Origin: Microgenomates group bacterium GW2011_GWC1_46_15
GTDB lineage: Bacteria > Patescibacteriota > Microgenomatia > UBA1400 > UBA12028
Reading direction: 5' to 3'
NCBI GenBank assembly: GCA_001002285.1
Contig: LCLX01000001.1
Location: 316,895-380,894, forward strand
DNA length: 64,000 nucleotides
Shown here: positions 24,928-54,749 of the stretch, one piece after another
Position numbering within the stretch: position 1 is the stretch's first letter
Layout of the letters: the number at the start of each line of letters is the position of its first letter
Notes under the pieces: model-generated
What the model was told of the DNA's origin: nothing
The model's input: only the letters and a program-made list of their open reading frames with translations
Databases searched by the model: none
Program-made: the position numbers and the translations under genes

Positions 24928-26061
24928 GTGCATAATAGAAAGATGAAATATCTTGGTTTGTTTCTCGCAGTGTTTATCACTGGATACCATGTGTTTTCGC
25001 AGTGGCAGGTCTTTTCTTCCCCAACGGATATGCGGGCATTTGGCAAGGCATATGCAAACTCACAATATGTAAAAGGAGAAGCGAGCACGCAGAAAGTTGA
25101 TGATGCGGCGGTGTATACATACGCGGCTTCTGCATACATGCGTGGGGAAGACCCAACGACAATTAACTTTGAGCATCCGCCATTAGGAAAGTATCTTTTT
25201 GGAGTGTCGTACCTCCTAACAGGAAATATATTATGGGCGAATGCAGTTGCGCTTTTTCTCGTTTTATTTTTTCTTGATGTACTTATGCGGCGCGTTAGCC
25301 TCATGCCACTATTACGCGCTATCGTACTTCTTCTTTTTGGTCTCCAGGAGATGATTCATGTTCACATGCGGTTGGGATTGATGGATCTCATGGTGTTGTG
25401 CGCGAGTGTGATATTTTTTGTGGCGCTTTTTTCGCAGAGTCCAAAACAAAATCCGAAATGGAAAAAATGGCACGGGGTTGGAGTAGGCCTTGTATTAGGG
25501 TTGCTTGCTTCGCTTAAATATCCTGTACCCTCAATTGGAATGTATGTGGCGATGATGGTGTGGTGGTACGTCCGGCAAAAAACATACCGACAGATTGTTG
25601 TTGCAAGTTTGGTGGCAGTGAGCATGTACATGTTTACGTACGGGGTGTATTTTCTTCATGGTCATTCGCTGATCGATTTTGTGAAGTTCGAATGGTACCG
25701 GTTCCGGTGGTGGACGGGAGATCGGAGTATGCCAAAGTTTTTAATTCTGCAGACTTTATTTACAGGGGGATTTCCCGCTTGGTGGGATAAAGGAGCGCGG
25801 TATGTGGAGACGGAATGGTCGGTGCTATGGCCGGTAGCGTATATTGCACAGTTCATCGGGCTTCCAGTGATGAGGAAAAACAAAGAGCTCCAAATGTATT
25901 TTGTGTATGGTACTGGATTTTTAATGTTATTTGCCGTTGGTGCGGCCTCGTTTGGTCGGTATCTCCAGCAGCTTTTGCCATTTTGGTTGATTATTGCGGC
26001 ATGTGGAGCGCAGTGGGTGTACACGCAAGTCAAAAAGAAAAACTATGCAAAACAAACATAA
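24928..26061 (+). CDS. PMT-like GT-C membrane protein (short form).
   Basis: KVDDAAVYTYAASAYMRGEDP...FEHPPLGKYLFG carries the DDxxxY and HPPLGK motifs of the PMT/ArnT first loop. The ORF-track start is GTG 24928, with an alternative ATG at 24943. Confidence 0.5.
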   Translation: MHNRKMKYLGLFLAVFITGYHVFSQWQVFSSPTDMRAFGKAYANSQYVKGEASTQKVDDAAVYTYAASAYMRGEDPTTINFEHPPLGKYLFGVSYLLTGNILWANAVALFLVLFFLDVLMRRVSLMPLLRAIVLLLFGLQEMIHVHMRLGLMDLMVLCASVIFFVALFSQSPKQNPKWKKWHGVGVGLVLGLLASLKYPVPSIGMYVAMMVWWYVRQKTYRQIVVASLVAVSMYMFTYGVYFLHGHSLIDFVKFEWYRFRWWTGDRSMPKFLILQTLFTGGFPAWWDKGARYVETEWSVLWPVAYIAQFIGLPVMRKNKELQMYFVYGTGFLMLFAVGAASFGRYLQQLLPFWLIIAACGAQWVYTQVKKKNYAKQT

Positions 26062-38532: not shown

Positions 38533-39348
38533 ATGCCAACAATTTCTGCTGTCATTATCGCAAAAAACGAAGAAAAAATGATTGCAAACTGCCTTGATAC
38601 GCTCCAATGGTGTGATGAATGCATCGTCATTGATAATGGCTCTACGGATAGCACTCCAATGCTGGCAGAACAAGCCGGCGCACACGTTATTGAACTCAAA
38701 AACGCTGGTTTTGCCGAAGCGCGCACAAAAGGGAAAGATGAAGCAAAAAGCGATTGGATTCTATATATTGACGCTGATGAACGCGTTACTCCAAAGTTAA
38801 AATCAGAAGTACAGAGAGTGATATCGTCTCCTGGATATCAGGCATACTCAGTGCCGCGGAACAACATTCACTATGGAAAATGGATGCAGTATGGAGGATG
38901 GGAAAAAGATCGCGTTGTCCGTCTTTTTCAAAAGAAGCACCTCAGCGCATGGGAAGGGAAAGTACATGAACACGCTATTGTTGATGGTGTGACTGGAGAA
39001 CTCCGTGAGCCACTTGTGCACCTCACGCATCGGAACATGAAAGAGGGGCTTGAAAAGTCAATTGTATGGACGGACATCGAAGCGCATTTATTTCTCGCGG
39101 CGGGCCATCCAAACATGACGACACTTCGATTAATAAAAGTGACACTGTGGGAGTTTTTCAGCAGAGTTTTCAAAAAGAAAGCATATAAAGACGGAACTGA
39201 GGGGATGATTGAGGCGATGGTGCAGGCGATGAATCGTTTCTTGGTATATGAACGCGTGTGGGAGCTTCAACGGAAACCATCGTTGGATGAAACATATCAA
39301 AAGATAGAAAAGGAAATCGCATCGCTATGGCGCAAACAAAACGGATAG
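38533..39348 (+). CDS. GT2 glycosyltransferase (WaaE/KdtX-like).
   Basis: ISAVIIAKNEEKMI, VIDNGSTDST, DADERVTPKL. Confidence 0.7.
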   Translation: MPTISAVIIAKNEEKMIANCLDTLQWCDECIVIDNGSTDSTPMLAEQAGAHVIELKNAGFAEARTKGKDEAKSDWILYIDADERVTPKLKSEVQRVISSPGYQAYSVPRNNIHYGKWMQYGGWEKDRVVRLFQKKHLSAWEGKVHEHAIVDGVTGELREPLVHLTHRNMKEGLEKSIVWTDIEAHLFLAAGHPNMTTLRLIKVTLWEFFSRVFKKKAYKDGTEGMIEAMVQAMNRFLVYERVWELQRKPSLDETYQKIEKEIASLWRKQNG

Positions 39349-40430
39349 GACTGTACTCACCATACGTTCCCGAACACGCTGGAGGCGGGGAACGGTACTT
39401 TATGTCGGTTACCGAAATTCTTTCGGAGTCGCACGACGTTACGATGCTTCTCGCGCGCGGCGGAGACGAGCAAGCGGTGCGGGAAAAATATGAACAGGCG
39501 TTTCATCTCGATCTTTCGCGCGTTCACTTTAAACAAACGGCGATTGGAACACGGGCCTCTTTCTTAACCAAGGTATTGGAAACCGCACAGTACGACGTGT
39601 TGTACTATCTTACCGACGGAAGCCTCTTTTTTAGCCTGGCTAAACGCAATATCTTACATATCCAATTTCCGTTTGCGTTTGTGCAGTCAGGCCTCATAAA
39701 CAGAGTAAAGTTGTGGAACTGGCATATCTGTAACACAAACTCCGCGTTCACAAAAAAAATTATTGAGCAGTGGTGGAAAATTTCGGTTCCTTTTGTCCAC
39801 TATCCGTATGTTGATTCAGCGCTTTATGTGCCGGCAACAAAAGAACAGATTATTCTTTCTGTTGGTCGGTTTTTTTCCGGTGAAAAATCAGTCATGCACT
39901 GCAAGCGTCAAGATATCATGGTAAAGGTATTCCGCTCGATGGTTAATCATGGATTAAAAGGATGGAAACTTGTGCTGATTGGGAGCATTGACCCCGGTGA
40001 GGACAACGCGGCATACGCGGCGCGTGTAGCAACGGCTGCAAAAGGATATCCCATCAAAATTTTGCACAATGCATCGTTCGATATGCTTAAACAATACTAT
40101 GCCGTTTCATCGGTATACTGGCACGCGGCGGGTTTTAGCATTGATGAAGAAAAAGAGCCTACAAAAGTCGAACATTTTGGTATTTCTCCACTGGAAGCGA
40201 TGTCTTCGGAAGCAGTACCCGTTGTTGTTGGAAAAGGCGGATTAAAAGAAATTGTTGAACATGGTGTTTCCGGTTTTCTTTGGCAGACCGAGGAAGAACT
40301 TACGCGCAATACCGCGCAGCTGATTGAGAATCACGATATGATGGAAACAATGGGACAGAAAGCCCGTGAACGCGCCAAGTTTTTTAGCAAAGAGCAGTTC
40401 CGTAAAACACTTGAGGAAATGATAGGATGA
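39327..40430 (+). CDS. GT4 (GT-B) glycosyltransferase.
   Basis: C-terminal EHFGISPLEAM (Ex7E motif) and GGLKEIVEHG. Confidence 0.75.
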   Translation: MAQTKRIGLYSPYVPEHAGGGERYFMSVTEILSESHDVTMLLARGGDEQAVREKYEQAFHLDLSRVHFKQTAIGTRASFLTKVLETAQYDVLYYLTDGSLFFSLAKRNILHIQFPFAFVQSGLINRVKLWNWHICNTNSAFTKKIIEQWWKISVPFVHYPYVDSALYVPATKEQIILSVGRFFSGEKSVMHCKRQDIMVKVFRSMVNHGLKGWKLVLIGSIDPGEDNAAYAARVATAAKGYPIKILHNASFDMLKQYYAVSSVYWHAAGFSIDEEKEPTKVEHFGISPLEAMSSEAVPVVVGKGGLKEIVEHGVSGFLWQTEEELTRNTAQLIENHDMMETMGQKARERAKFFSKEQFRKTLEEMIG

Positions 40431-41335
40431 ACGTTTCGTTTGTCATTCCGAACTACAACGGAAAACATCTTCTGCAAAAACACCTGCCCGCGGTGCTTGC
40501 TTCTGCCCGCGGTGGTGATGAAGTTATTGTGGTGGACGATGCCTCAACTGATGGCTCTGCAGAGTTTATAAAAGCAACTTTCCCGCAGGTACGCGTTCTC
40601 GTTCAGCAAAAAAATATGCGGTTTGCTGAAGCGTGCAACGCTGGAGTTCATGCGGCAAAACATCCGCTTGTTTTTCTTTTGAATACCGATGTTTCTCCAG
40701 AAAAAGATGCGCTTTCATATCTCGTTCCTCATTTTGAGGATAAAAATGTATTTGCGGTTGGATGTTTGGAACTCGATGATACGGGAAAACAAAGCGGGAG
40801 AAGTTCCGGAAGTTTTCAACGCGGATTTTTGATTCATAAAAGAGCAGAAAATCAGAATGCGCCGCAAACGCTTTGGGCTGCGGGTGGAAGTATGATGGTA
40901 AAAAAAGAGCTGTGGGAATCACTCGGAGGGATGGATCATCTTTTCCGGCCGGCATACTATGAGGACATTGATTTGAGTTACCGCGCACAAAAACTTGGAT
41001 ACACCGTTGCTTTTGAGCCGCGCGCAAAAGTACACCATCACCATGAATCAACAAATCCATCGGCGTTAGGAAAAAACCAGATGCACATCTACGCATTTAA
41101 AAACTCTTTCTTATTTATCTGGAAAAACGTGACGGATACACAACTTCTTATTCAACATCTTCTTTGGTTGCCGTATCACTTTGTTATAACGGGATGGAGA
41201 AGTTCCGGATTTTTCGTTCTTGGATTTTTTATGGCACTGTTCCAACTACCCGAAGCGTTGCATAAACGGTGGTTGCTTCAAAAAAGATGGAAACGTACCG
41301 ATAAAGAAGTTATAAACAGGGTAAACGCTATATGA
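40427..41335 (+). CDS. GT2 glycosyltransferase, WbbL-like.
   Basis: VSFVIPNYN, VVDDASTDGS, and YYEDIDLSYR. The C-terminus has a TM segment. Confidence 0.7.
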   Translation: MNVSFVIPNYNGKHLLQKHLPAVLASARGGDEVIVVDDASTDGSAEFIKATFPQVRVLVQQKNMRFAEACNAGVHAAKHPLVFLLNTDVSPEKDALSYLVPHFEDKNVFAVGCLELDDTGKQSGRSSGSFQRGFLIHKRAENQNAPQTLWAAGGSMMVKKELWESLGGMDHLFRPAYYEDIDLSYRAQKLGYTVAFEPRAKVHHHHESTNPSALGKNQMHIYAFKNSFLFIWKNVTDTQLLIQHLLWLPYHFVITGWRSSGFFVLGFFMALFQLPEALHKRWLLQKRWKRTDKEVINRVNAI

Positions 41336-42834
41336 ACCGCAGAGATATGATGATTTTTGTGTTGATTCTCATTCTTGCAGTGTTTTTGCGTTTTTTCCAC
41401 TTAGGTAGTTTGCCAATTGGCCTCACTTGGGATGAGGCGGCGATCGGATACAGCGGATTTGGCATTATGTCGGTTCACCGCGATGAGTGGTTGAATAAAA
41501 TGCCGATCGTGTTCAAATCTTTTGGTGACTACAAGGCGGCGGTGGCAATATACGCTGATGCAATCACCACGTGGATGTTTGGTCTCGACACGTTTGGTAT
41601 CCGCTTTCCGATGGCGGTAGCGGGTGTGATAACCACCGCAACTTCGTATTGGCTGGGATTATTTCTGTTTAAAGAGAAAAAATATGCGTTTCTCCTCATG
41701 GGACTTTTGGCTGTTTCTCCGCTGAATATTCATTACTCAAGAATGGCGTTTGAATCCGGCATTGCGGTCATGCTCGTAACGATTGGGTTTACATTGTTGT
41801 TCTATGCGCAAAAAAAGACAGCACTTTATTTCCCAGCTGCTTTTTCTCTCGTTCTTTCGCTCTACGCGTATCACAGCACAAAGATTGGTGTCCCGCTTTT
41901 TCTTTTTGTGTATGTTTTGGTATTTTGGAACATCATAAAGAAACAGATTGGTATTATTGGTTTAGCAGGTTTGTTCGGTGCAGTTTTACTCTTTCCTTTA
42001 GCAAAAGAAATGATGTACGGCAACGCTGCAGCGCGGTTTGCGATGACTTCGGTTATTTCTACGCCGGCGGAACTAAAACCTTTGCCGGAAGTAGTGAGTA
42101 TTATTGGTGAAAACTATGCAAAACATTTTAATTTCTCCTTTTTACTACAAGGAAAAACGCCGATTTACCGGCACGGAAACAATGTGTTTGGAATTCTTTC
42201 GCTTGTTGAGTTTGTGTTGATGTGCGCGAGCATAATTTCATGTATGCAGAAAGAAACACGGAAAAAGTTTTGGTGGATCCCCATCTTCATTCTTGTAGCA
42301 ATATTTCCGGCCGCAATAAGTGATGATGCTCCGCACAGCAATCGTGCGCACATTATTATTCCATGGATTCAAATGCTGGCGGTTATGGGATACATCTATG
42401 TTGAAAAATTCTTTCCCAAAAAAGCTTTTTTCTTTGGAGTTGTAACACTTCTTCTCATTCAAACAGCTTGGTACGCGCGGATTTACCAGCGCGTGTATAC
42501 ATATGACAGCGCCCGTGATTTTCAATATGGATATAAAGAAGCAGTGTTGTACGCGAAGTCGCAGGAGGGCAAAGTAGACAAAGTATTGCTCACAAGCGCG
42601 TATGGTCAGCCGTATATTTATGTTCTGCTCTATAAAAAACTTACTCCAATTGAGTATCAGCAGGGGGCGCTCGCGAACTATGAAATACGTGATCTCAAAT
42701 GGGACCAGGATAAAAATAGAAAAAATGCGTTGATTATTGGAACACCTTGGGAAATTCCAGCAAACGCAGACCATATTGTAAAAGAAATTCACTATCCCGA
42801 CGGGGAAGTTGCATTTAGGATTGTCAAACAATGA
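41332..42834 (+). CDS. GT-C glycosyltransferase, PMT_2/ArnT-like. First of a tandem array of four.
   Basis: TWDEAAIGYSGFGIM...SFGDYKAA...IRFPMAVAG. Overlaps neighbouring genes by 4 nt. Confidence 0.7.
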   Translation: MNRRDMMIFVLILILAVFLRFFHLGSLPIGLTWDEAAIGYSGFGIMSVHRDEWLNKMPIVFKSFGDYKAAVAIYADAITTWMFGLDTFGIRFPMAVAGVITTATSYWLGLFLFKEKKYAFLLMGLLAVSPLNIHYSRMAFESGIAVMLVTIGFTLLFYAQKKTALYFPAAFSLVLSLYAYHSTKIGVPLFLFVYVLVFWNIIKKQIGIIGLAGLFGAVLLFPLAKEMMYGNAAARFAMTSVISTPAELKPLPEVVSIIGENYAKHFNFSFLLQGKTPIYRHGNNVFGILSLVEFVLMCASIISCMQKETRKKFWWIPIFILVAIFPAAISDDAPHSNRAHIIIPWIQMLAVMGYIYVEKFFPKKAFFFGVVTLLLIQTAWYARIYQRVYTYDSARDFQYGYKEAVLYAKSQEGKVDKVLLTSAYGQPYIYVLLYKKLTPIEYQQGALANYEIRDLKWDQDKNRKNALIIGTPWEIPANADHIVKEIHYPDGEVAFRIVKQ

Positions 42835-44441
42835 AGTACTGGAAACTCTTTTTGATATTCATTTTGCTTCTGGCAGCGTTTTTACGGCTATATAAGATAA
42901 CTTCCATTCCTCCTTCGTTGTATTGGGAAGAGACTGCGCTTGGATATGACGCGTACTCCATTATGCAAACTGGCAAAGATTATCATGGGAATATTCTGCC
43001 CATACTTGCCCTCTCATCATTTGGCGACTACAAACCCTCAGGATATTTTTACGCGATTGTTCCTTTTATGCGTGTGTTCGGTCTGAGTGAACTCGCCGTG
43101 CGCTTGCCTTCGGCGTTTGCGGGAATAGCAACGGTGTTTGTCGTGTATGCGATTGGTTCCGCGTTGTATAACAAGAAAATTGGTTTGTTTGCCGCGCTTT
43201 TTTATACGATTCAACCGTGGAGCATTCAGCTTTCGCGTGTTGGGTTTGAAACAAACCTTGCGACGTTTTTATTGGCAATGGGAGTACTTTTGTCAATAAA
43301 AGCGGAGAAAAAAACATGGTTGTACGTGGTGTCAGCTTTATTTTTCGGATTATCGGCGTATACATATCACTCGGAACGCATTGTTGCCCCATTATTCGGC
43401 CTCGTCGTAGGTGTACGTTTTCTTTTTTCATATCTACGTAGTCCAAAAAAGGGAAAACCATCACTTGGTTGGGCAGTTGCAACGCTTTTCATTGGTATCG
43501 CAATGCTTTTTCCGATCCTTAGCAACTTGAAAAATCCAATCATTGCTCACCGCGCGGAAGAAACGAGTATTTTCTCTGACCCAACTCCCGTACTTGAGAG
43601 CAACGCTTTGCGTGCTGAGGATGGAAATACTGTAGTGAGCAGAGTTCTCCATCACCGGTATGTTTTATTTGGCGGGTTGATGCTCCAGCAGTATGTAAAA
43701 AACTTTTCCCCAACATTTCTTTTTCTTACAGGAGATGAAAACAATAGACATGGAACGCACGAGTTTGGTTTGTTGTACCATGTGGAATTTTTTCTCGTTG
43801 CCGCCGGGTTATATATAGTATGCGTGCGAAGAACGTTCCGTCATATGCTACCAGTGATGTGGGTAGCATTTTCCGCGCTTCCAGTTGCGCTTACTGTAAC
43901 TTCACCGCATACGCTTCGATTTGCTTCTGCCGCGCCGGCGTTTGCGTTACTTTCCGCGCTTGGAATAGTTTTTCTTTCAGAAGTTTTTGGGAAAATATGG
44001 CGCAAAAAACTTATCTTAGGTATTCTGGCGATCCTTTGTATTGAATCTGTCGTGTATCTGCACTTCTACTTCACCCACTATCCTGTTTTATCCGCCACAG
44101 ATTGGCAGTATGGATATAAAGATCTTTTTTCATCACTCGAACAACTAAAAAAACCAAATCAGAAGGTTTTTGTCACGCGTGAGCAAGGAAGACCGTCAAT
44201 CTACTACATGTTTTATACCAAACAGGATCCGCGGTATGTTCAATCGCAGGATGCGGTTGTAAAAAAAGATCAACAAGAATTTCTGGAACTCGGTCGATAT
44301 GTATTTGTAGATAATATTCCTCCAGAAAAAGGAACACTCGTCGCGTCCTCACCTTCAAAAATGCCGAAAAACGTACAACCAATACAAACGATTTTAAATC
44401 CTGATGGATCAGTGAGCTGGGTGATTTGGGAGCAACAATGA
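42831..44441 (+). CDS. GT-C glycosyltransferase, PMT_2/ArnT-like. Second of the tandem array.
   Basis: YWEETALGYDAYSIMQTGKDYHG...SFGDYKPSGY...AVRLPSAFAG. Confidence 0.7.
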   Translation: MKYWKLFLIFILLLAAFLRLYKITSIPPSLYWEETALGYDAYSIMQTGKDYHGNILPILALSSFGDYKPSGYFYAIVPFMRVFGLSELAVRLPSAFAGIATVFVVYAIGSALYNKKIGLFAALFYTIQPWSIQLSRVGFETNLATFLLAMGVLLSIKAEKKTWLYVVSALFFGLSAYTYHSERIVAPLFGLVVGVRFLFSYLRSPKKGKPSLGWAVATLFIGIAMLFPILSNLKNPIIAHRAEETSIFSDPTPVLESNALRAEDGNTVVSRVLHHRYVLFGGLMLQQYVKNFSPTFLFLTGDENNRHGTHEFGLLYHVEFFLVAAGLYIVCVRRTFRHMLPVMWVAFSALPVALTVTSPHTLRFASAAPAFALLSALGIVFLSEVFGKIWRKKLILGILAILCIESVVYLHFYFTHYPVLSATDWQYGYKDLFSSLEQLKKPNQKVFVTREQGRPSIYYMFYTKQDPRYVQSQDAVVKKDQQEFLELGRYVFVDNIPPEKGTLVASSPSKMPKNVQPIQTILNPDGSVSWVIWEQQ

Positions 44442-46042
44442 AAAAACTACACGTACTCATATTTTGCATGATTTTGCTGATTGCTGCTGTGCTTCGATTG
44501 TACAAACTCGGAAGTATCCCGGTGAGTATGTACATTGATGAGATTGCGATTGGCGTTGATGCAAAATCTATCGCGCAAACGGGCAGGGATATGCACGGTC
44601 ATTCCTGGCTTACTCCAATGTTTTTGTCGTATGGTGACTACAAACTTCCAGTCTATATATGGATAGCCACCGCTTCGGTCAAAATATTTGGCGCTACAGA
44701 GTTCGCGGTCCGCCTGCCCTCAGCAGTTGCGGGAGTATTGACGGTTTTTCTTATCTATTTTATTTCCGTTGAGTTGTTTGAGAAAAGAAAAGACCGCATA
44801 TGGATTGGTTTGGCCTCTGCTGTGGTAACGGCGGTTCTTCCGTGGAGCGTACTTTTCTCGCGGACAGGATTTGAGGGACACGTCGGCCAAATGTTTCTCC
44901 TTCTTTCAATTCTTTTTGCCTTGTATGCAAGAAAACGGCCATGGTTTATTGTGTGTTCTGCTGTTACTGGAGCTCTCGCGGTGTATACGTACTTCAGCAT
45001 CCGGTTTGTTTTCCCAGTTGTTCTTTTGGCATCATTTATAGTATCCGCAAAGAAGTTTGAATCAAAACATATATTTCGTGGCGTTTTAGGACTTGTGGTA
45101 TTTGGCCTACTTTTAATTCCATTAGTGAGGTCTCCATATTACGCTCCAAGCAACGCCTTTCGTTTATCGGCTTCTAGCATTCTGGATAACACGCAGCGGG
45201 TGCTGTATTCCAATGTATTACGGGCGCAGGATCGTGAAGCGTGGTACTCAAGAGTACTTCATCACCGCGAACTCTACTTTTTGAAGGATTTAATCACGCA
45301 CTATGCGGCACACTTTGATCTCTCTTATCTTTTTATAAGTGGTGACGTGAATCTACGGCATAGTACGGGAAAAACAGGCATTATGTTCTTAACATTTGCT
45401 CCCCTGTTTTTTGTAGGACTCTATGTTTGCACGCGTAAAGAACAAAAAGTTGGCATATTTCTAGCGGTATGGTATTTGATTGCCCTTCTTCCCGCGTCGG
45501 TGCCAAACGAAGTTCCGCACGCATTGCGGTCAATAAACGGAGTCGGAGTTGCTGCTCTATTGTGCGGGCTAGGAGCTGTTGAACTCTATTCATTTCTTTA
45601 CAAAAAACGATTTGGGAAAGTGGTGATCGGTGTATTTGCATGTGCGATACTTTTTAACATTTTTTCATTTCTTCACGACTACACCATACATTATCCAACC
45701 CGATCAAAAAAGGCGTGGTCATACGGGAAAAAACAGATCGCACAGTTTATTGAAGAAGAAAAAACATCATACGATCATGTTATTGTCGCAACTGATGATT
45801 CAATGTATTTATGGGTGCTTTTTTATGGGAACTATGATTTTACCAAAGTTCAGCGCATGCCATTTATCGATAATAAGTTGCAAAACATCAATACGATCAA
45901 TTTCCGTAGGCTTATAGAAAGCGATAGTGAATCAAAACATACATTAACTGTCGGACTTTCTGATGAGGTATACAAAAAAGACGGATTTTATCCCATTCCA
46001 ACAGCACATTCGCAAGACTATATATACAGGAGCCAGCCATGA
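44438..46042 (+). CDS. GT-C glycosyltransferase, PMT_2/ArnT-like. Third of the tandem array.
   Basis: YIDEIAIGVDAKSIAQTGRDMHG...SYGDYKLPVY...AVRLPSAVAG. The start is an ATGA overlap (ORF-track start 44426). Confidence 0.7.
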   Translation: MKKLHVLIFCMILLIAAVLRLYKLGSIPVSMYIDEIAIGVDAKSIAQTGRDMHGHSWLTPMFLSYGDYKLPVYIWIATASVKIFGATEFAVRLPSAVAGVLTVFLIYFISVELFEKRKDRIWIGLASAVVTAVLPWSVLFSRTGFEGHVGQMFLLLSILFALYARKRPWFIVCSAVTGALAVYTYFSIRFVFPVVLLASFIVSAKKFESKHIFRGVLGLVVFGLLLIPLVRSPYYAPSNAFRLSASSILDNTQRVLYSNVLRAQDREAWYSRVLHHRELYFLKDLITHYAAHFDLSYLFISGDVNLRHSTGKTGIMFLTFAPLFFVGLYVCTRKEQKVGIFLAVWYLIALLPASVPNEVPHALRSINGVGVAALLCGLGAVELYSFLYKKRFGKVVIGVFACAILFNIFSFLHDYTIHYPTRSKKAWSYGKKQIAQFIEEEKTSYDHVIVATDDSMYLWVLFYGNYDFTKVQRMPFIDNKLQNINTINFRRLIESDSESKHTLTVGLSDEVYKKDGFYPIPTAHSQDYIYRSQP

Positions 46043-47568
46043 AGTTCACAAAAACAACATACATTCTGATCTTTTGCATCATTATTGGTCTTGTTGCGCG
46101 GGTTGCGTTGTTTCCGTCAATTCCTCCTGAATTAAATAGAGATGAGGCGGCGCTTGGATACAATGCCTACAGTATTCTAAAAACAGGAAGTGACGAGTGG
46201 GGCGTACGGTTCCCAGTAACATTCCGCTCGTTTGGCGACTACAAACTTCCTGGATATATCTATACGCTTGTCCCATTTATTGCGGCGTTCGGACTCACAC
46301 CATTGGCAGTTCGGCTTCCTTCGTTACTCGCGGGAGTTGTGCTTATTCCTCTTGCATATTTTTTTGCTGTTCGGCTCACAAAGAACAAAAACATTGGGTA
46401 TGCTACAGCATTTCTTCTCGCAATTTCTCCATGGGCAATTCATTATAGTAGAGTTGGTTTTGAAGCAAATCTTGCACTCACACTTCTTATTGGTGGAATC
46501 ATTCCATTTTTATCAAAAGAAGTCCCGTGGAAATTGTTTTTATTTTCACTCGTTTGTCTTTTTGTTTCATTTATGACGTACAATACTCCACTTATTCTTT
46601 TTCCATTCATACTTGGCGTTTTATGTATGTGGAAATTTTTGTCTTATCGTCAATCTTTTCTATTACTTCTTGTTGGAATCATTTCTTTTGCACTGATTCT
46701 TCCCGCTACACGAGGCAAGGGAACAATTACAGTGTTTTCTGATCAAAATTTAGGAGAGCTAAGAAGAGCGGGGCGCATGCAGGATAGTAGCATCATCGGA
46801 AGAATCCAATACAGCCCATTTATATTTTATCTCCCAACAGTGACGAAGAACTACCTCGCGACATTCTCACCATCATTTTTGGTCACTCAGGGAGGAAGAA
46901 ATCCATGGCATCAACCATCTGGTGTCTCACATATGACGTGGCCACTCTATGTTTTATCACTTTTGGGCATGGTTGTGCTTATGCGCGATGCGGTAAAAGG
47001 AAAAGGAGTTGTTCTAGGATTACTTCTATCGGCTCCAATTGCTTCGGCAATCACAACAGATGCGCCCCACGCCACCCGAAGCCTTTTATTTTTCTTCATG
47101 CTTGTCGTATGTGCAGGAGTTGGTCTGGAAAAAATATTTCGATACAAGAAAATACTCGGCATAGTAACGTTAGGAGCGCTTCTCACTGGATTTTTCACCT
47201 ACATGCGCACGTATCTTGTATATTTTCCTGCCCACCCACAACAAGAATGGAGTACTGGAATATCATCGGCAATCCGGCAGGCAGAGAACATGCGAAAAAA
47301 TGATGAAGTGATTACGATTGTCGGCGATACACATTACTCGTACATCTACCCATTATTTGCTTTGCGTCAAGATCCGGGGGAATTAAGAAAAACAGAAAAA
47401 ACATATGGTAAAGATGTTCTAGGTTTTACTCCGGTTCAAAGTTTTTCACACTATCGTTTTGTTGAATCATTAGACAAGGTTCCAGTAAACAGTATTGTGA
47501 TTTTTCAAAAAGACCCGCTCACATTCACTATTGCACGCACGGATAGCTATGGGAAAATAAGCCAATGA
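46039..47568 (+). CDS. GT-C glycosyltransferase, PMT_2/ArnT-like. Fourth of the tandem array.
   Basis: NRDEAALGYNAYSILKTGSDEWG...SFGDYKLPGY...AVRLPSLLAG. Confidence 0.7.
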   Translation: MKFTKTTYILIFCIIIGLVARVALFPSIPPELNRDEAALGYNAYSILKTGSDEWGVRFPVTFRSFGDYKLPGYIYTLVPFIAAFGLTPLAVRLPSLLAGVVLIPLAYFFAVRLTKNKNIGYATAFLLAISPWAIHYSRVGFEANLALTLLIGGIIPFLSKEVPWKLFLFSLVCLFVSFMTYNTPLILFPFILGVLCMWKFLSYRQSFLLLLVGIISFALILPATRGKGTITVFSDQNLGELRRAGRMQDSSIIGRIQYSPFIFYLPTVTKNYLATFSPSFLVTQGGRNPWHQPSGVSHMTWPLYVLSLLGMVVLMRDAVKGKGVVLGLLLSAPIASAITTDAPHATRSLLFFFMLVVCAGVGLEKIFRYKKILGIVTLGALLTGFFTYMRTYLVYFPAHPQQEWSTGISSAIRQAENMRKNDEVITIVGDTHYSYIYPLFALRQDPGELRKTEKTYGKDVLGFTPVQSFSHYRFVESLDKVPVNSIVIFQKDPLTFTIARTDSYGKISQ

Positions 47569-48419
47569 AACTTTCAATCGTTTTAGCGGTGTATAACGAA
47601 GAAAAAAATCTCGCAGAGTGCTTGAAGTCTATAGAACATATTGCTGATGAAATCGTCATTGTTGATGGTGGAAGTACGGATAACACTGTTGAGATCGCGC
47701 AAAAGTTTGGCGCGCGAGTTATAAAAACAACTAATCCACCAATGTTTCACATCAATAAACAAAAAGCGCTGGAAGCCGCAAAAGGCGACTGGATTCTTCA
47801 CCTTGATGCAGATGAGCGGGTAGCACCGGCGTTGGCTAAACAGATTCAGGAGGCAGTCAAGGGATATCCCATAGAAATTGTTGATGCGAAAAAACAGAAT
47901 CTTTTTATCCGCCACCAACAAAATATTGAAGCAAGAGATGGAAAAATTGGAACAGATAAAAGTGAAATCACTGCATATTTCATACCACGATTGAATTTTT
48001 TCTTAGGGGGGTATCTCAAACATGGCGGTGTATATCCAGACGGTGAGATCCGTTTGGTCAAAAAAGGGAAAGCGTACTTTCCATGTAAAAACGTGCATGA
48101 GCAGATGCATATTGATGGCAGAGTTGCGTGGCTTTCTGAAGATCTCATTCACATGGCCGATCCAACGTTCAGCAGATATCTCATGCGCGCAAACCGGTAT
48201 ACAAGCCTTACCGCGAAGGAGTTTGAAAAACAGCACATACCAAAGTTCGGCATATCAGTATTCATGTATATGTTTGTAAAGCCGTTCACCACATTTTTAT
48301 CGCTCTATTTTCGACATAAAGGATTTCTTGATGGATTCCCAGGATTTGTGTGGGCAGTGTTTTCTGGTCTTCATTTTCCACTTGCGTACATGAAATATTG
48401 GGAAAACCATGATGCATAA
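47565..48419 (+). CDS. GT2 glycosyltransferase (WaaE/KdtX-like).
   Basis: LSIVLAVYNEEKNL, VDGGSTDNT, DADERVAPAL. Confidence 0.7.
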   Translation: MKLSIVLAVYNEEKNLAECLKSIEHIADEIVIVDGGSTDNTVEIAQKFGARVIKTTNPPMFHINKQKALEAAKGDWILHLDADERVAPALAKQIQEAVKGYPIEIVDAKKQNLFIRHQQNIEARDGKIGTDKSEITAYFIPRLNFFLGGYLKHGGVYPDGEIRLVKKGKAYFPCKNVHEQMHIDGRVAWLSEDLIHMADPTFSRYLMRANRYTSLTAKEFEKQHIPKFGISVFMYMFVKPFTTFLSLYFRHKGFLDGFPGFVWAVFSGLHFPLAYMKYWENHDA

Positions 48420-48927
48420 ACTTGCCGCGCTTGTCCCATTGCTTGGATGGTTTTATTTTACTATTGGTGGATATGCGATATTTTCATGGATCACAAAAGA
48501 TAAATTTTCTTTCATGAAACGCGTATTTTTCGTAGTATTCGGCCTATACGCGACGATGCTTTCATTTCAATCATTGCGATCTGAAGTAATGTTATATAAG
48601 GAAACGCGGAAAACACTTTTTGATACGTTTTATCAGAAAATCTCATACGAAGCCGGCACATACTACGATATGTACTATCATGCGTTCCGTTTAGCAATGC
48701 CAAACGGCAAGTACGTTATACATCTAGAGGACGTCCCAACACGCGAACTGCACTACGCGCGCATGTACCTGTATCCCGACTCTGTATTTATTGTTGACCA
48801 TGTACCGGCTGTCGCGGGCAATTTTGGTATTGTGCGAGAAAGCACAAAGTCTGCGATCGTAAAACAGTCTGACACAATTTTAATATATGGGGGAAAACAG
48901 CTTATCCGTGTAAAAGGAGCACAATAA
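48409..48927 (+). CDS. Hypothetical membrane-anchored protein.
   Basis: 172 aa with two N-terminal TM helices and a soluble domain. No recognisable family. Confidence 0.45.
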   Translation: MMHKLAALVPLLGWFYFTIGGYAIFSWITKDKFSFMKRVFFVVFGLYATMLSFQSLRSEVMLYKETRKTLFDTFYQKISYEAGTYYDMYYHAFRLAMPNGKYVIHLEDVPTRELHYARMYLYPDSVFIVDHVPAVAGNFGIVRESTKSAIVKQSDTILIYGGKQLIRVKGAQ

Positions 48928-50246
48928 TGTTTGAAGTATTTTTCCCTATCGCAATCATGTGGCTGATGTATATCGGTGTTGGTGTTTTAGCGTTTCAGTT
49001 TCTTCAAACACGCGAAAAAATAAAAGTAGTATCAGAGTCTCCAGCATACATATGGAGCGTGTCATTTTTGATTGGAGCAGGCATCGTAACGCTCGGAGAG
49101 TTTGTGCTTTCATTAATAAAAGTACCGTTTTGGATTTCATTATGTGGATTTGGTGCAATCACTCTCTATAGCCTTTTTCTTTACCGCCACACACTATGTT
49201 CACCAACACGAAAACCTCAAACGATCTTTACCACTCTTTTTTGGGTCGGCACAGCAATCATGATGTTTTTCTTTTTTACACGGTCAATGTCCCGCGTTAC
49301 GTACACATGGGACTCGATCGCGTTTTGGACGCCAAAAATGTTTGCACTGTGGTCCGACCAGACCGTACATCTTGAGGGATTGCGCAACTTCAATCATCCT
49401 GAGTATCCGTTACTCCTACCATTAACGGGCGCCAACGCGTTTACCGTTGTTGGCGAGTACAACGAAGTTTCGGCAAAAGCGGTGATTTTTGGTTTTTCAC
49501 TCGCACTTTTCCTTCTTATCGGCAACGCGCTTCTCACGCAAAAATCGTCAAAACTTAAAAAAGTTTTCTGGATGGTTCTTTTTCTTTCAATATTCATTGT
49601 CCGTGAACACGTCGCGGGAGAGTATGTCGGAACGGCCGATATTTTTGTGGGAACGTATTTCGTCGCAGGAACGATTGCATTACTAAAAAAACATCGGCTT
49701 ATTGCCTTAGTTCTCTGGCTTTTTGCCGCGTGGAGCAAGAGTGAGGGACTAGTATTTGCCGGCGTTACAACGTTTTTACTTTTCCTCAGTTATCCAAGCC
49801 TTCGGAAGTGGATTGTCCTTAGTTTTGCTGCGATTGCGGTTCCGTGGCAGCTTTTCACAAAATTAAGCGGATTGGGAAGTCAGTACTTTGCGTTTGGCTC
49901 GTTGTATGCCCGGCCATGGATTGAGTACGCGGTGTACAGTGTTCACGCATTCCGCGAAGAGTTCCGCAATCTGCAAAAATGGAATCTCGTGTTCTTTTTC
50001 TTTCTCGCGCAGTCATTTGCCACAATCAAACGCATTGCACAACACAAAGAACTGCGGATTATTTACGCTGGCTTAACTGTTCAACTTCTTTCATATATGG
50101 TAATCTTCACGATAGCTCCGGAAGAGCAGGCGAGTTTTATCGCGGCAGCTATCTCGCGGTTAACGCTTCACCTTGCTCCAACGGCTCTAGTTATAACGGC
50201 GTACCTTTTTTCGCAGGAGTTTCATGCAAAACACCAAAAAACATAG
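48927..50246 (+). CDS. Polytopic membrane protein of unknown family (candidate polymerase/ligase-type).
   Basis: 439 aa with about 10-12 TM segments. It sits between GT2 genes. Confidence 0.45.
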   Translation: MFEVFFPIAIMWLMYIGVGVLAFQFLQTREKIKVVSESPAYIWSVSFLIGAGIVTLGEFVLSLIKVPFWISLCGFGAITLYSLFLYRHTLCSPTRKPQTIFTTLFWVGTAIMMFFFFTRSMSRVTYTWDSIAFWTPKMFALWSDQTVHLEGLRNFNHPEYPLLLPLTGANAFTVVGEYNEVSAKAVIFGFSLALFLLIGNALLTQKSSKLKKVFWMVLFLSIFIVREHVAGEYVGTADIFVGTYFVAGTIALLKKHRLIALVLWLFAAWSKSEGLVFAGVTTFLLFLSYPSLRKWIVLSFAAIAVPWQLFTKLSGLGSQYFAFGSLYARPWIEYAVYSVHAFREEFRNLQKWNLVFFFFLAQSFATIKRIAQHKELRIIYAGLTVQLLSYMVIFTIAPEEQASFIAAAISRLTLHLAPTALVITAYLFSQEFHAKHQKT

Positions 50247-50934
50247 CATTTCAGTCGTTCTTCCGTGTTTAAACGAGGAGGAAACACTGAGGGCGTCTAT
50301 TGCGAAGGCAAAAGAAGGTATTACAAGAGCTGGGCTTGATGGAGAAGTGATTATCGCGGATAACGGTTCACACGATCATTCGGTTGAAGTGGCAAAGAAA
50401 GCAGGCGCGCGCGTCGTTGAGGTAACACGCCGCGGGTATGGAGCCGCGCTTATGGGCGGATTTGCAGAAGCAAAAGGTGATCTCCTTGTGATGGGGGATG
50501 CCGATGATACGTATGACTTCCGTGAAATTCCGTTGTTGTATAAAAAATATCTTGAGGGATATGACTTCGTGAGTGGAAATCGACTCAAGGGGAATATTGA
50601 TCCCAAAGCGATGCCATTTATTCACCGATATATTGGCGTTCCGGCGCTTACACTTGCGCTTAACCTCTTTTTTTGGACCGGCATTTGGGATGGACACTGC
50701 GGTTTGCGCCTTTTTTCGAAAAAAGCATATTTGCTTATGCGGTTAAACTCACCAGGGATGGAGTTTGCATCCGAAATGCTGATGAAGGCTAAAAAAGCGG
50801 GGTTAAAAATGGCAGAAGTGCCCGTAAGTTATGGATCCCGCCACACAAAGTCATACTCAAAGCTCAATACATTCCGCGATGGGTTCCGTCATCTTGGTCT
50901 TATTCTCGCCTATGCGTTTGGCATAAAAACTTGA
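50224..50934 (+). CDS. GT2 polyprenyl-phosphate sugar synthase (DPM1/GtrB/ArnC-like).
   Basis: ISVVLPCLNEE, ADNGSHDHS, and GDADDTYD (DxD). Confidence 0.75.
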   Translation: MQNTKKHSISVVLPCLNEEETLRASIAKAKEGITRAGLDGEVIIADNGSHDHSVEVAKKAGARVVEVTRRGYGAALMGGFAEAKGDLLVMGDADDTYDFREIPLLYKKYLEGYDFVSGNRLKGNIDPKAMPFIHRYIGVPALTLALNLFFWTGIWDGHCGLRLFSKKAYLLMRLNSPGMEFASEMLMKAKKAGLKMAEVPVSYGSRHTKSYSKLNTFRDGFRHLGLILAYAFGIKT

Positions 50935-50952
50935 GTAAGGTATGATGGGAAC

Positions 50953-52002
50953 ATGCGAGTCCAGATTGATGTCTCTCAGCTCAATGCGATGAATGCGTAT
51001 CGTGGCGTTGGCGTGTACACCGATCTTTTGTTCCAACACTTGCGCCACCTTAAAACTTTAGACACATTTTCTTTAACAACAGAAAAAACAAAAGAACATC
51101 CCGATCTCATCCATTATCCGTATTTCGATTTGTTTTTCCACACTCTCCCTATCAAAAAGCGGGCAAAAACAGTTGTAACAATCCACGATGTTATTCCGTT
51201 GGTTTTTCCCGAGCACTATAGATCTGGTATCAAAGGATCGATCCGTTTTTTACAACAGCTTCTCGCGCTCAACACAGTTGATGCTGTGATTACTGATTCG
51301 ATGTGCTCAAAAAAAGATATTATTCAACATCTTAAGTTTCCTGCTGAAAAAGTATACGTTGTGCATTTGGCGGGAAACCCACTCCTTCATGCCACACCAA
51401 AGACTGATGTTGATGCGGTGCTAAAAAAATATAATATTCCAGAAAAATATCTCTTGTATGTCGGCGATATTAACTACAACAAAAATCTTCCAGCATTGTT
51501 GCGCGCGTTCTCAACACTTTCGCAAAATCTTCATCTTGTTATGGTCGGGCGGTCGCTGAACAATATAGAAATTCCAGAAGGCAGGTGGATTCACGATACT
51601 ATTCAGGAAAAGGGAATCGCGCAAAGAGTTCATCTCCTTACAGATATTCCAAAACATCCTGCGACTGAACTTGCTGCGTTATTTACTGGTGCATCGGCAT
51701 ATGTTCAACCCTCTCTGTATGAGGGGTTTGGCCTTTCTGTGCTTGATGCAATGCAGTGCGGAGCACTCGTCATTTCTTCAACTGGTGGGTCGCTTCCAGA
51801 GGTTGTGGGTGATGCGGCATTATTTTTTGATCCCCGAAATGAACATGAAATGGCAGATACGATGAATCAAGCCCTTTCTCTCTCTATGACAAAGAAGAAA
51901 GTTTTCCTTTCGTTGGCTCAGCACAACCTCAAACGGTTTTCTTGGGAGAAAACGGCACAGAAAACATACGCCATCTATAAAAAAGTACTTGAAACAGTAT
52001 GA
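50953..52002 (+). CDS. GT4 (GT-B) glycosyltransferase.
   Basis: SLYEGFGLSVLDAM (Ex7E) and GGSLPEVVGDAALFFDP. Confidence 0.75.
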   Translation: MRVQIDVSQLNAMNAYRGVGVYTDLLFQHLRHLKTLDTFSLTTEKTKEHPDLIHYPYFDLFFHTLPIKKRAKTVVTIHDVIPLVFPEHYRSGIKGSIRFLQQLLALNTVDAVITDSMCSKKDIIQHLKFPAEKVYVVHLAGNPLLHATPKTDVDAVLKKYNIPEKYLLYVGDINYNKNLPALLRAFSTLSQNLHLVMVGRSLNNIEIPEGRWIHDTIQEKGIAQRVHLLTDIPKHPATELAALFTGASAYVQPSLYEGFGLSVLDAMQCGALVISSTGGSLPEVVGDAALFFDPRNEHEMADTMNQALSLSMTKKKVFLSLAQHNLKRFSWEKTAQKTYAIYKKVLETV

Positions 52003-54749
52003 AACGGTTTTTATCTATCATTTTGATTCTCGCTTTTGCATTACTCGCACTTCCTATGTTTCATTCAGGATTTCCTTTTACGCACGACGGGGAAAATCAT
52101 CTGGCACGGATTGCAAACTATGCTGTCGCGCTTAAACAGGGCCAGTTTCCACCGCGGTGGGCGCCAACATTCTGGGGCGGATATGGCTATCCCGTGTTCA
52201 ACTTCAACTATCCACTAGCCAACATTGCAGCACTTCCATTTTTAGCGGTTGGACTTCATGTTGAAACAACACTCAAACTTCTTTTTCTCCTTGGTATAGC
52301 GCTTGGAACGGTGGGCACGTATTTCTATTGCCGAACGTTTATTCCAAAGAGTGCCTCACTTTTCGCAACATGTGTATACCTCCTATCCCCATTTCTTTTT
52401 TCTAATGTATATTTGCGTGGAGCAATCGGCGAAGTCTTGGGGTACGCTCTTTTACCCATAACACTATGGATGGTTGAGCGCACGCGTCAGCACCCCTCAA
52501 TGCAGAATAAACTTTTTCTTTTTATATCAATACTTTCTTTGGCACTGGCGCATAACATTGTCGCGATGTTTGTCATCCCGCCTCTTCTTATCTATATTGC
52601 ACTACGGGCCAGAACTTGGCATGTTATCCTGCCATCATTTTTTGGACTGTCCGCATCATCCTTTTTCTGGATCCCCGCATTGGTTGAGAAAAAATTTGTT
52701 ACGTTAGATCTTGTGAGCGTGTCAAACCAGTACTATCTTCATTTCCCAACACTACAACAGCTTCTCTTTTCCGTGTTTGAACATGGATTTTCATATCCTG
52801 GACCGATTGACACAATGTCGTTCCAAATAGGGGGACTCATTCTTATATCACTCTTTTTTGGTATCCTTCACGTTGTTTTCCGCACAAAACACGCAAAACA
52901 AATTTTTGGATTAGTATGCGGAGTTCTTACACTTTTTTTTATGATGCTTTCTTCCTCGCTTTTTATATGGAAACTCATTCCAATGCTTTCGTATGTGCAG
53001 TTTCCATGGAGACTATTAGGTCCAGTCGTATTTGTTGGCTCGTTACTTGCGGGATACGTGTATCTTGATGCTTCCCGTGCGGTGCGCGCAGTATTGATTG
53101 GAGTATTGATGTTTTCATTGATTTCAACCGCAAAAAAACCAGTAACGGATTTTATTCATCATGATGATCTGTATTACAAGACATTCACGCAAACGTCCAC
53201 AATTCTTGATGAAAACCGTCCAAGAACGCTCGGTATTCAACCTGGAACACTGAGTAGCCAGAAGCCAGTTCTGGAAAGCAAAGCGGATATTCAGATTCAG
53301 TCATGGAGTGGTACGCAACATGTCTACGCGATCAATACCGAAAAAGAACAAACAATAACGGAAGAAACGGCATACTTTCCTGGATGGGAGACAAGGATTG
53401 ATGGCAAACTGGCCACAGTAACATTTGAAAAAACACAAGGCCGTATCAGTTATAGTATCCCCGCAGGAAAACACACCGTTCAAACACGGTTTACACAGAA
53501 CACACCGCCAAGGTTGGTTGGAAATGGCATCACAATAGCGTCATTTCTCGGGATGGGCAGTCTTATAGTGATACAGAAGAAAAAGAAAAAAAATATGACA
53601 CCATTAGCAAAACGCACTTTTTTTCTCATTAGTGCTGCTTTTGTGATTTGGCGAGTACTCCTTCAAGTTTTTGCATTGCTAAGTCCCCGGTTTTTGTCTT
53701 TCCAGCCGAGTTATCCGTACTACGATGCTCTTCTTGTTCCGCTTGGCCCATGGTGGCTTGTGCGGTGGGCTGGGTTTGACGGGGTACACTACCTCACAAT
53801 TGCGATGAAAGGATATCTTGGAACGGGTCTTATTCAAGCATTTTTCCCCATGTATCCATTTGCGATGTATTTCTTTAACCTCTTTCGTAATCTTTTAATG
53901 TCGGGATTACTTGTTTCTCATCTGAGTTTCATAGCAGCACTTTTCTTGTTGTATAAACTTTTTCGTTTGGATGAGAGAAGAAACGTTTCTGTATTAGCAG
54001 TTCTTTGCATGCTTATTTACCCCGTCTCATTTTTCTTTGCTTCGTTGTACACAGAATCATTATTTTTACTATGCATTGTTGGAGCATTCTATGCTGTGCG
54101 GAAAAAACAATGGTGGTTTGCGGCGCTGTGTGCTGCCGTAGCAAGTGCGACTCGGATTACAGGAATTTTTATTGTTCCAGCAGTCATCATAGAAGCAATC
54201 ATGCTTTCAAAAGAAAAAAATGAAAAAGTTCCATGGCAAACAATCGCGATTCTTTTAACAGGAGTACTGGGTCTTCTTTTTTACATGGGATATTTGGCTG
54301 TTACTTTCCGCGACCCATTATATTTTTTGCACGTACAAACTGCATTTGGAGGAGGAAGGCAGGAAACACCAGTGTTGATTCCACAGGTATTTTACCGGTA
54401 CATTAAAATTTTCATGACAGCGCGCACAACATCACCATTGTTAATGTACGCGTATGCTCAAGAGTTTTTAATGACATTGTCGGTTGGCCTCGTTCTTTTC
54501 TTCGCAACACTCAAAAAATGGTTAAGGCCGTCGTATCTTCTCTATGCGTGGGGGGCATACTTGCTTCCACCGCTCACAGGAACGTTTCAAAGCATGCCAA
54601 GATACATGATGGTAATTTTCCCGCTGTTTTTACTACAAGCAAAATTGTGGAAACATAAACCAATACTTTTTATTTTGTTAGCGATTGTGCTAGTCATTCA
54701 CCTTGCGGTGAACACAATGCTGTTTTTTCAAGGATATTGGGTGTCGTAA
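51999..54749 (+). CDS. Apparent fusion of two GT-C-like proteins. The N-terminal about 532 aa belongs to the HDxxH / FPxRW / GYGYP family. The C-terminal about 385 aa is PIG-V/DUF2029-like (WxGxDGxHYLxIAxxGY). The two are joined across an A8 tract.
   Basis: N-terminus: HDGENHLARIANYAVALKQGQFPPRWAPTFWGGYGYPVFNFNYPL. C-terminus: WLVRWAGFDGVHYLTIAMKGYLGTG. The junction reads ...VIQKKKKKN-MTPLAKR, with AAAAAAAATATGA at 53586..53598. Confidence 0.55.
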   Translation: MKRFLSIILILAFALLALPMFHSGFPFTHDGENHLARIANYAVALKQGQFPPRWAPTFWGGYGYPVFNFNYPLANIAALPFLAVGLHVETTLKLLFLLGIALGTVGTYFYCRTFIPKSASLFATCVYLLSPFLFSNVYLRGAIGEVLGYALLPITLWMVERTRQHPSMQNKLFLFISILSLALAHNIVAMFVIPPLLIYIALRARTWHVILPSFFGLSASSFFWIPALVEKKFVTLDLVSVSNQYYLHFPTLQQLLFSVFEHGFSYPGPIDTMSFQIGGLILISLFFGILHVVFRTKHAKQIFGLVCGVLTLFFMMLSSSLFIWKLIPMLSYVQFPWRLLGPVVFVGSLLAGYVYLDASRAVRAVLIGVLMFSLISTAKKPVTDFIHHDDLYYKTFTQTSTILDENRPRTLGIQPGTLSSQKPVLESKADIQIQSWSGTQHVYAINTEKEQTITEETAYFPGWETRIDGKLATVTFEKTQGRISYSIPAGKHTVQTRFTQNTPPRLVGNGITIASFLGMGSLIVIQKKKKKNMTPLAKRTFFLISAAFVIWRVLLQVFALLSPRFLSFQPSYPYYDALLVPLGPWWLVRWAGFDGVHYLTIAMKGYLGTGLIQAFFPMYPFAMYFFNLFRNLLMSGLLVSHLSFIAALFLLYKLFRLDERRNVSVLAVLCMLIYPVSFFFASLYTESLFLLCIVGAFYAVRKKQWWFAALCAAVASATRITGIFIVPAVIIEAIMLSKEKNEKVPWQTIAILLTGVLGLLFYMGYLAVTFRDPLYFLHVQTAFGGGRQETPVLIPQVFYRYIKIFMTARTTSPLLMYAYAQEFLMTLSVGLVLFFATLKKWLRPSYLLYAWGAYLLPPLTGTFQSMPRYMMVIFPLFLLQAKLWKHKPILFILLAIVLVIHLAVNTMLFFQGYWVS

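Follow-up and report, generated by a model that had tools for sequence, protein, structure and literature searches.

Does a run of eight adenines in the genome of Microgenomates group bacterium GW2011_GWC1_46_15 join two membrane glycosyltransferases into one protein, does it only appear to do so through a misread homopolymer, or does it switch between both states? The run lies inside an open reading frame (ORF) of 916 amino acids (aa) on the forward strand of a 64,000-nucleotide (nt) stretch of contig LCLX01000001.1, positions 316,895 to 380,894 (assembly GCA_001002285.1), which is referred to here as the window and whose numbering is used throughout. The answer favoured here, with a probability of about 0.8, is that the 916-aa gene is a genuine and recent fusion of adjacent GT-C-type genes, created by a +1 homopolymer insertion at an ATGA overlap of stop and start codon, and that the fused and split arrangements are stable alleles. 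The features on which the argument turns are all located on the + strand:

51999..54749, +: fused ORF of 916 aa, two GT-C-type membrane glycosyltransferase modules (from the ORF list and its translation)
51999..53594, +: N module, codons 1-532, assigned to the PF10131 'PTPS_related' family (from a sub-threshold Pfam match, PF10131 in orthologues, paralogue alignment and the stand-alone 532-aa sister form)
53559..53576, +: six codons S521-Q526 at the end of the last N-module helix, SLIVIQ in the fused and GVVALY in the split allele
53577..53593, +: lysine tract AAG AAA AAG AAA AAA AA, the positively charged loop between the modules, with A8 at its end
53586-53593, +: A8 homopolymer as read in the sequence, A7 in the split allele; the extra A brings both genes into one frame
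53595..53597, +: internal in-frame ATG (Met533, codon 533), the start codon of the C gene in the split allele, where the proteins P0127 and P0130 begin MTPLAKR
53596..53598, +: TGA, out of frame in the window; in the A7 allele it terminates the N gene and makes the ATGA overlap
53595..54749, +: C module, 384 aa, PIG-V/Gpi18-like or PMT_2-type GT-C (from Pfam and homologue names)

The junction of the fused reading frame

The original prediction had singled out an A8 run with an ATGA signature at the junction of two domains, and this can be read directly at 53586-53598: the junction is GTG ATA CAG AAG AAA AAG AAA AAA AAT ATG ACA, TATGA (53594-53598) follows directly after the A8 run, and the ATG at codon 533 divides the 916 aa into N and C parts of 532 and 384 aa. 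It had also foreseen that the loss of one A would give an ATA TGA stop and an ATGA overlap. When the run is shortened to A7 in silico the sequence becomes AAA ATA TGA and encodes a 532-aa product that ends KKKKKI*, with the TGA overlapping the ATG, and this arrangement of 532 and 384 aa is real in a sister lineage. With A6 or A9 the N product gains an out-of-frame tail of 12-13 residues, the downstream ATG still being there. The junction peptide of the fused product is IQKKKKKNMTPLAK, whose split counterparts are a C-terminal YKKKKKI and an N-terminal MTPLAK, and KKKKKNMTPLAKR is a short lysine/arginine-rich loop that joins the last helix of the N module to the first helix of the C module.

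The A8 run is special by its position only and not by length statistics. A/T runs of at least 8 nt are observed 11 times in the window, compared with 17.0 +/- 4.4 in Markov-chain simulations using the window's dinucleotide transition frequencies; the notion that the run is more than a chance occurrence was rejected, as such runs are rather under-represented. Other A8 runs are found in the window at 5813, 16107, 37129 and 39752, and the fused ORF itself contains further homopolymers, T8 at 52933, A7 at 53132 and 54214 and T7 at 53618, where a frameshift would truncate one module. No length differences were found at these four runs among the loci that are 100% identical to the window. The purine-rich run had in addition been likened to a Shine-Dalgarno (SD) sequence, but it has no GGAGG-type core, and only 18 of the 57 gene-like ORFs of the window have any SD-like tetramer upstream.

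A fused A8 allele and a split A7 allele

The identical 916-aa protein is encoded by 15 contigs and corresponds to KKU24773.1 / HAV15419.1 of a metagenome-assembled genome (MAG) from the Microgenomates/Pacebacteria, which belong to the candidate phyla radiation; several of the sequencing runs that carry it belong to groundwater project PRJNA268031. Four of the loci (L001-L004), which comprise one NCBI MAG and assemblies of SRR1658465, SRR1658462 and SRR6487619, match the window with 100% nt identity along 10.8-22 kb, and each has A8, the run length likewise read in the window and in a further locus, L010. The 90%-identity protein cluster of the 916-aa protein also contains members of 532 aa and 384 aa. 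At locus L005 the junction reads CTC TAT AAG AAA AAG AAA AAA ATA TGA CAC, which amounts to an A7 run, a TGA stop, an ATGA overlap and a separate 384-aa gene. The same A7 split allele is present in the DNA of L011, L012 and L013, and L094-L099 carry the exact A7-type 532-aa protein (P0128). This sister haplotype (L005, L011-L013, L094-L099) occurs in at least six samples, and where the sister lineage is represented it has approximately 90-91% nt identity to the window.

Both haplotypes share the identical 16-mer AAGAAAAAGAAAAAAA, and in a codon-level alignment the sole length difference between them is one A. The six codons at 53559-53576 are all nonsynonymously different, with 9 of 18 nt changed as compared with about 9% across the gene, and this patch travels together with the tract length. 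The haplotypes can be told apart upstream of the tract by the marker sequences GTGATACAG (window haplotype) and GCACTCTAT (sister haplotype). Across every junction read, A8 is accompanied by the window patch at six loci including the window, and A7 by the sister patch at five loci at the DNA level (L005, L006, L011, L012 and L013), with the hybrid junction of L007 as a further A7 case. A scan of JGI metagenomes with a junction pattern of variable length gave a single match, an A7 junction of the sister haplotype. Over the divergence that separates the fused and split lineages, a single change of state is observed.

Between these lineages the ratio of nonsynonymous to synonymous substitution rates (dN/dS) is 0.12 for the N module and 0.10 for the C module at dS values of 0.30-0.39, from which it follows that both modules are functional in both arrangements. 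The earlier suggestion that the two halves are complete proteins which exist as separate genes elsewhere is borne out by the sister lineage (532 + 384 aa) and by 40 of 80 loci from other species. Judging from these alignments, the A run is the place where the fused and split states interconvert.

Orthologous loci and recurrent fusion of the gene pair

One genome per species was scanned for the C module and 80 loci were read. The 80 loci kept are from species other than that of the window, the best match being 50% identical, and the close relatives described above come from metagenome and protein collections. The loci are distributed as follows:

40 of 80: separate N-family gene directly upstream of the C gene, overlapping it in 34 cases and with a 4-nt ATGA or GTGA overlap in 11
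7 of 80: N-family gene further upstream, at 0.4-3.5 kb
20 of 80: no N-family gene within 3.5 kb
9 of 80: C gene too near the contig end to tell
4 of 80: fused, including one locus (L061) with an internal TAG

Among the best 120 C-module homologues listed, 119 have stand-alone length, the list not being exhaustive since the known fused proteins lie outside it; two tandem GT-C modules in one chain are accordingly uncommon in this family. Fused orthologues have 35-46% identity to the window protein and can be grouped by a table of nearest-neighbour identities, to which a neighbour-joining (NJ) tree adds no evidence on the deep branching order. The window forms one group, its nearest neighbour being the split sister at 94.5%. 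A second group consists of P0002 and P0003, the linker type of which is shared by P0004, and a third of P0005, P0006 (which is L064), L046, L054 and L061. The remaining fused proteins P0008, P0010 and P0011 have mostly split or unlinked genes as nearest neighbours. On these identities the N-C pair is counted as having fused at least four times. The linkers of the other fusions are short, mutually unrelated and devoid of Met; only the window linker still contains the Met together with the entire N-terminal tail of the C-module protein.

This retention of the Met and of the complete downstream tail is the reason why the window fusion is read as young and probably derived. The direction from split to fused is suggested by parsimony, by the nearest-neighbour identities and by the retained Met. 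It is proposed that the ancestral state was a 532-aa N gene with the lysine tail AAG AAA AAG AAA AAA ATA TGA, its stop codon overlapping the ATG of a 384-aa C gene, an arrangement that the sister lineage, recovered in the same study of groundwater, and most related species still have. The addition of one A to the A7 run, as expected of replication slippage, which is the presumed cause, would convert ATA TGA into AAT ATG A, whereby the stop codon is lost and the downstream ATG comes into frame to yield one polypeptide. The last N helix and the first C helix would then be joined by the lysine/arginine-rich and putatively cytoplasmic loop, and each module would keep its own topology.

Homologues made up of the N module alone typically have tails rich in K/R (3.05 K/R on average among the final 10 aa), and an A run of at least 6 nt occurs at 13 of the 40 split junctions. 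Since this is so, A-rich lysine codons beside an overlapping stop and start codon may make the junction mutationally prone to fusion.

The locus belongs with the 'Rosetta stone' fusions of adjacent, functionally linked genes and with fusions that arise when the stop codon at a stop/start overlap is lost: two complete proteins, separate neighbours in most relatives, are found here in one reproducible and uninterrupted ORF, both modules are intact and under purifying selection, and the fusion is recurrent across lineages. It differs from them in being a polymorphism between two lineages of one groundwater study, in having an identifiable causal mutation, one adenine added to an A7 run beside the ATGA overlap, and in its partners, two polytopic GT-C membrane enzymes whose membrane topology must be respected. 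A literature search for fusions at ATGA overlaps gave nothing specific.

Two further observations concern the survey loci. L061 (CAZYRN010000001.1) is fused and has an in-frame TAG at ~3833, in the beta-rich domain of the N module, where its relatives have Arg; it may represent a pseudogene, an error or a recoded stop. The overlap between N and C genes is well over 4 nt in some species, namely 149 nt in L035 and 37 nt in L032 and L059, each with inferred starts, and such long overlaps could hide frameshift errors or alternative starts.

Sequencing error, switch or recoding

A homopolymer error of sequencing or assembly, which would leave the organism with a true A7 run and two genes, was among the explanations first offered, and homopolymers are indeed error-prone, the closest relative has A7 and most orthologues are split. 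Nevertheless, A8 recurs in 15 contigs from independent runs and assemblers, the four loci of different samples and runs that match the window show no other difference over 10-22 kb, and genuinely fused orthologues exist. The platforms moreover resolve A8 from A7, because these data sets consistently give A7 for the sister haplotype, which leaves an error extremely improbable. Orthologues encoding the same fusion had been named in advance, together with uniform A8 in high-accuracy reads, as what would refute the two-gene or switch reading; fused orthologues exist, and most orthologues are split. The other explanation offered was a slipped-strand contingency site, at which fast changes in A-run length let a clonal population yield both fused and split states. 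Surface-glycan islands such as this one are the classical home of phase-variable glycosyltransferases (Campylobacter, Haemophilus, Neisseria), the natural alleles are one A apart in a homopolymer and both viable, and contigs break at the tract in one sample. Like simple sequence repeat (SSR) contingency loci, the site has a homopolymer within a glycosyltransferase frame in a glycan island, where a change of one base shifts the downstream frame. The resemblance ends with the behaviour of the tract, the length of which is strictly tied to the flanking haplotype (six A8 loci; five A7 loci together with L094-L099; the hybrid L007 also A7), and clonal, 100% identical loci of different samples are all A8. 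No variation in tract length within a haplotype was found at the consensus level among the junctions read, and an exact look-up of slipped alleles (A6, A7 and A9 versions of the full-length window protein, plus four guesses at an A8 fusion in the sister haplotype), which detects only full-length and exactly identical proteins, found none in a collection of 15 billion proteins. A8 is also shorter than the cut-off of at least 10 nt which PhasomeIt applies to phase-variable poly-A/T tracts (PMC6321876), long A/T runs are fewer in the window than expected (11 vs 17), and none of the older fused groups varies between the fused and the split state across 52-76% aa identity. There is furthermore no ON and OFF, as A7 gives two complete overlapping genes and A8 one complete fusion, so that the change of frame silences nothing and no module is switched off. 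A phase-variable switch is not supported by these data and is considered unlikely.

Transcriptional slippage or -1 frameshifting on the A run, by which one allele would make both fused and separate proteins, shares with the A-run slippage and frameshift systems of insertion sequence (IS) elements and dnaX an A run at the boundary of two frames, where a shift of one base fuses the ORFs (PMC1088944, PMC5009743). A runs are known to be prone to slippage (PMC1088944), and a -1 shift on the A7 allele would read AAT ATG ACA and give KKKKKNMTP, which is the product of the window allele. However, these systems use runs of 9A/9T, and many bacteria show selection against slippage-prone A/T runs from about 9 nt onwards (PMC1088944), whereas the tract here is 7-8 nt long. 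The junction lacks both an A/T run of at least 9 nt and a canonical heptamer accompanied by a stimulatory element: read in frame, the run gives no X XXY YYZ, and no stable RNA structure is seen downstream of or around the site (z -1.57 and +0.07 against shuffles). The tract is not over-represented or conserved at the site either, since A runs reach 7 nt or more at only 5 of the 40 split junctions of orthologues. The shift in the window is fixed in the DNA, and recoding is regarded as very unlikely. A further possibility is a slow evolutionary toggle at the A run of the lysine tail, in which functionally distinct fused and split forms are kept as a balanced polymorphism of the aquifer and RNA slippage perhaps adds a minor amount of the other form. 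Under such a toggle the forms could differ for example in fixed 1:1 stoichiometry and channelling versus independent use of the modules, and the six replaced codons upstream of the tract would have adapted the end of the helix to being fused or free. This scenario is speculative and unlikely. Fused and split forms are instead best described, from the linkage of tract and haplotype, as alternative stable alleles of diverged lineages and not as states of a rapid switch.

Several observations weigh against a stable and recent fusion. The hybrid junction of L007 is explained by neither allele, two assemblies of SRR1658467 (L008 and L009) start at window position 53594, exactly past the A run, and the contig of P0122 (HCR92973.1) stops five codons past the junction. 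Contig ends at the tract point to heterogeneity at or near it in some samples, which mixed haplotypes can explain but which could also be due to variation in tract length. The evidence on tract length consists of consensus assemblies, which are blind to minority variants within a population. Finally, the direction of change is drawn from an unsupported NJ tree, nearest-neighbour identities and the retained Met, and fission of an older fusion would be a possible alternative.

Mosaic haplotypes and irregular junctions

The junction is a recurrent assembly break point, and several assemblies combine the two haplotypes around it. L007 (JGI 3300025015, Ga0209210_1000073, 128 kb) matches the window except at the junction (window 53570-53586), where the window haplotype runs to ATAGT and is followed by the sister haplotype, CACTCTATAAG...A7, plus one base. 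As a consequence the N module ends at a TAA after 526 aa, without the KKKKK tail, and a spacer of 15 nt precedes the ATG of the C module. L007 represents either a third allele or a consensus artefact; the stretch shared is so short that a k-mer chimaera can hardly account for it. L006 has a single sister patch at 53517-53586 in an otherwise window-identical background, and L011 and L012 show, against window 52842-54440, discrete patches of single-nucleotide polymorphisms (SNPs) of the sister haplotype in an otherwise window-identical background, with the same mosaic in both assemblies. These patches are the result of either homologous recombination between lineages or assembly mosaics at the level of bubbles. 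A chimaera of co-occurring strains is possible for L006, is less likely for L011 and L012 because two assemblies yield the same mosaic, and does not explain L007. All calls of a window-type C module as a separate gene (P0130) come from the sister patch of L006, the hybrid L007 or the contig starts of L008 and L009.

A second MAG encodes a variant of the fused gene (P0126, KKT98063.1, UX00_C0005G0008) with an in-frame deletion of 20 aa, KGYLGTGLIQAFFPMYPFAM, at window ~53814-53873. The deletion takes out the most conserved motif of the C module, is flanked by a repeated 'AM', and either inactivates the protein or stems from a collapse in the assembly.

Families and predicted structure of the two modules

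In the secondary structure of an AlphaFold2 model, the membrane core of the N module is accompanied by a beta-rich domain (~385-500) and a last membrane helix (503-530), and the module has the KKKKK tail. It matches Pfam PF10131 with 22.3 bits, under the cut-off of 26.4, while the two window paralogues reach 34.6 and 37.3 bits and many orthologues have a precomputed PF10131 assignment. PF10131 is related to GT-C families by HHpred profile comparison (PMC7801869). The paralogues, at 19784-21436 (550 aa) and 25994-27760 (588 aa from a TTG start), align with the N part from end to end and both terminate a few residues past the last membrane helix. The N-terminal motif, which had been given as HDxxH, actually reads HDGENH (H-D-x3-H). 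The C module matches PF13231 (PMT_2) with 27.0 bits, above the cut-off of 26.1. The name given to its homologues is Gpi18-like mannosyltransferase, and they are assigned to PF04188 (PIG-V), precomputed in many of them, or to PF13231.

The AlphaFold2 model of the whole 916-aa protein has a mean predicted local distance difference test score (pLDDT) of 92.1 and a predicted template modelling score (pTM) of 0.73. Foldseek matches to solved structures at E <=0.001 are exclusively catalytic subunits of oligosaccharyltransferase (STT3, AglB), and the next matches are PglB, Emb, AftD, ArnT, ALG9, PMT and PIG-U. As Foldseek gave no query ranges for its alignments, the matches are assigned to the modules by Pfam. 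Like the known GT-C enzymes (STT3/PglB/AglB, ArnT, AftD/Emb, PMT, PIG-V, ALG), the protein is placed by its Pfam matches and top Foldseek matches within the GT-C group, and these matches fit a predicted GT-C fold in both modules, a fold marked by a polytopic membrane core and an extracytoplasmic loop with acidic residues. It differs from them in lacking detectable sequence similarity to any solved structure: a sequence search of each module against PDB chains gave no matches, and a search of NCBIfam gave sub-threshold matches only.

At the junction the model shows a helix at 503-530, a turn of four residues and a helix at 535-565. The loop at 526-542, as delimited by hydropathy, contains seven K/R and no D/E residues, and the predicted hairpin fits the positive-inside rule with a loop that would be cytoplasmic.

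The surrounding glycosylation island

The fused ORF is preceded by a further glycosyltransferase gene of the same operon-like string:

50953..52002, +: upstream GT4 glycosyltransferase gene, with an ATGA overlap with the fused ORF at 51999-52002

The use of an ATGA overlap at about ten other junctions of the locus had been proposed; the use itself is confirmed and the count is to be corrected to 12 stop/start overlaps of this kind between adjacent + strand ORFs in the window, one of them at 51999. A string of glycosylation genes linked by ATGA overlaps, including GT2 and GT4 genes, extends over 39327-52002 and contains four tandem GT-C paralogues (41332-42834, 42831-44441, 44426-46042 and 46039-47568). 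Additional GT-C genes are located at 19784, 25994 and 56521, and the island is unusually rich in GT-C genes.

Implications

For annotation, the 916-aa ORF is to be treated as one gene in the genome of the window and as two genes in the sister lineage. The mechanism is not new and the event is of a known kind, but the locus provides an unusually clean natural case of the birth of a fusion protein, in which the 'before' and 'after' alleles are both present in samples of one groundwater study. The two enzymes are predicted to cooperate because the same gene pair has been fused independently in several lineages; recurrent fusion together with conserved adjacency suggests that they act together in the building of surface glycans, a functional coupling that is read from gene arrangement. 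Such cooperation between GT-C enzymes that are themselves uncharacterised may help in attributing individual steps within the very large glycosylation islands that candidate-phyla bacteria possess.

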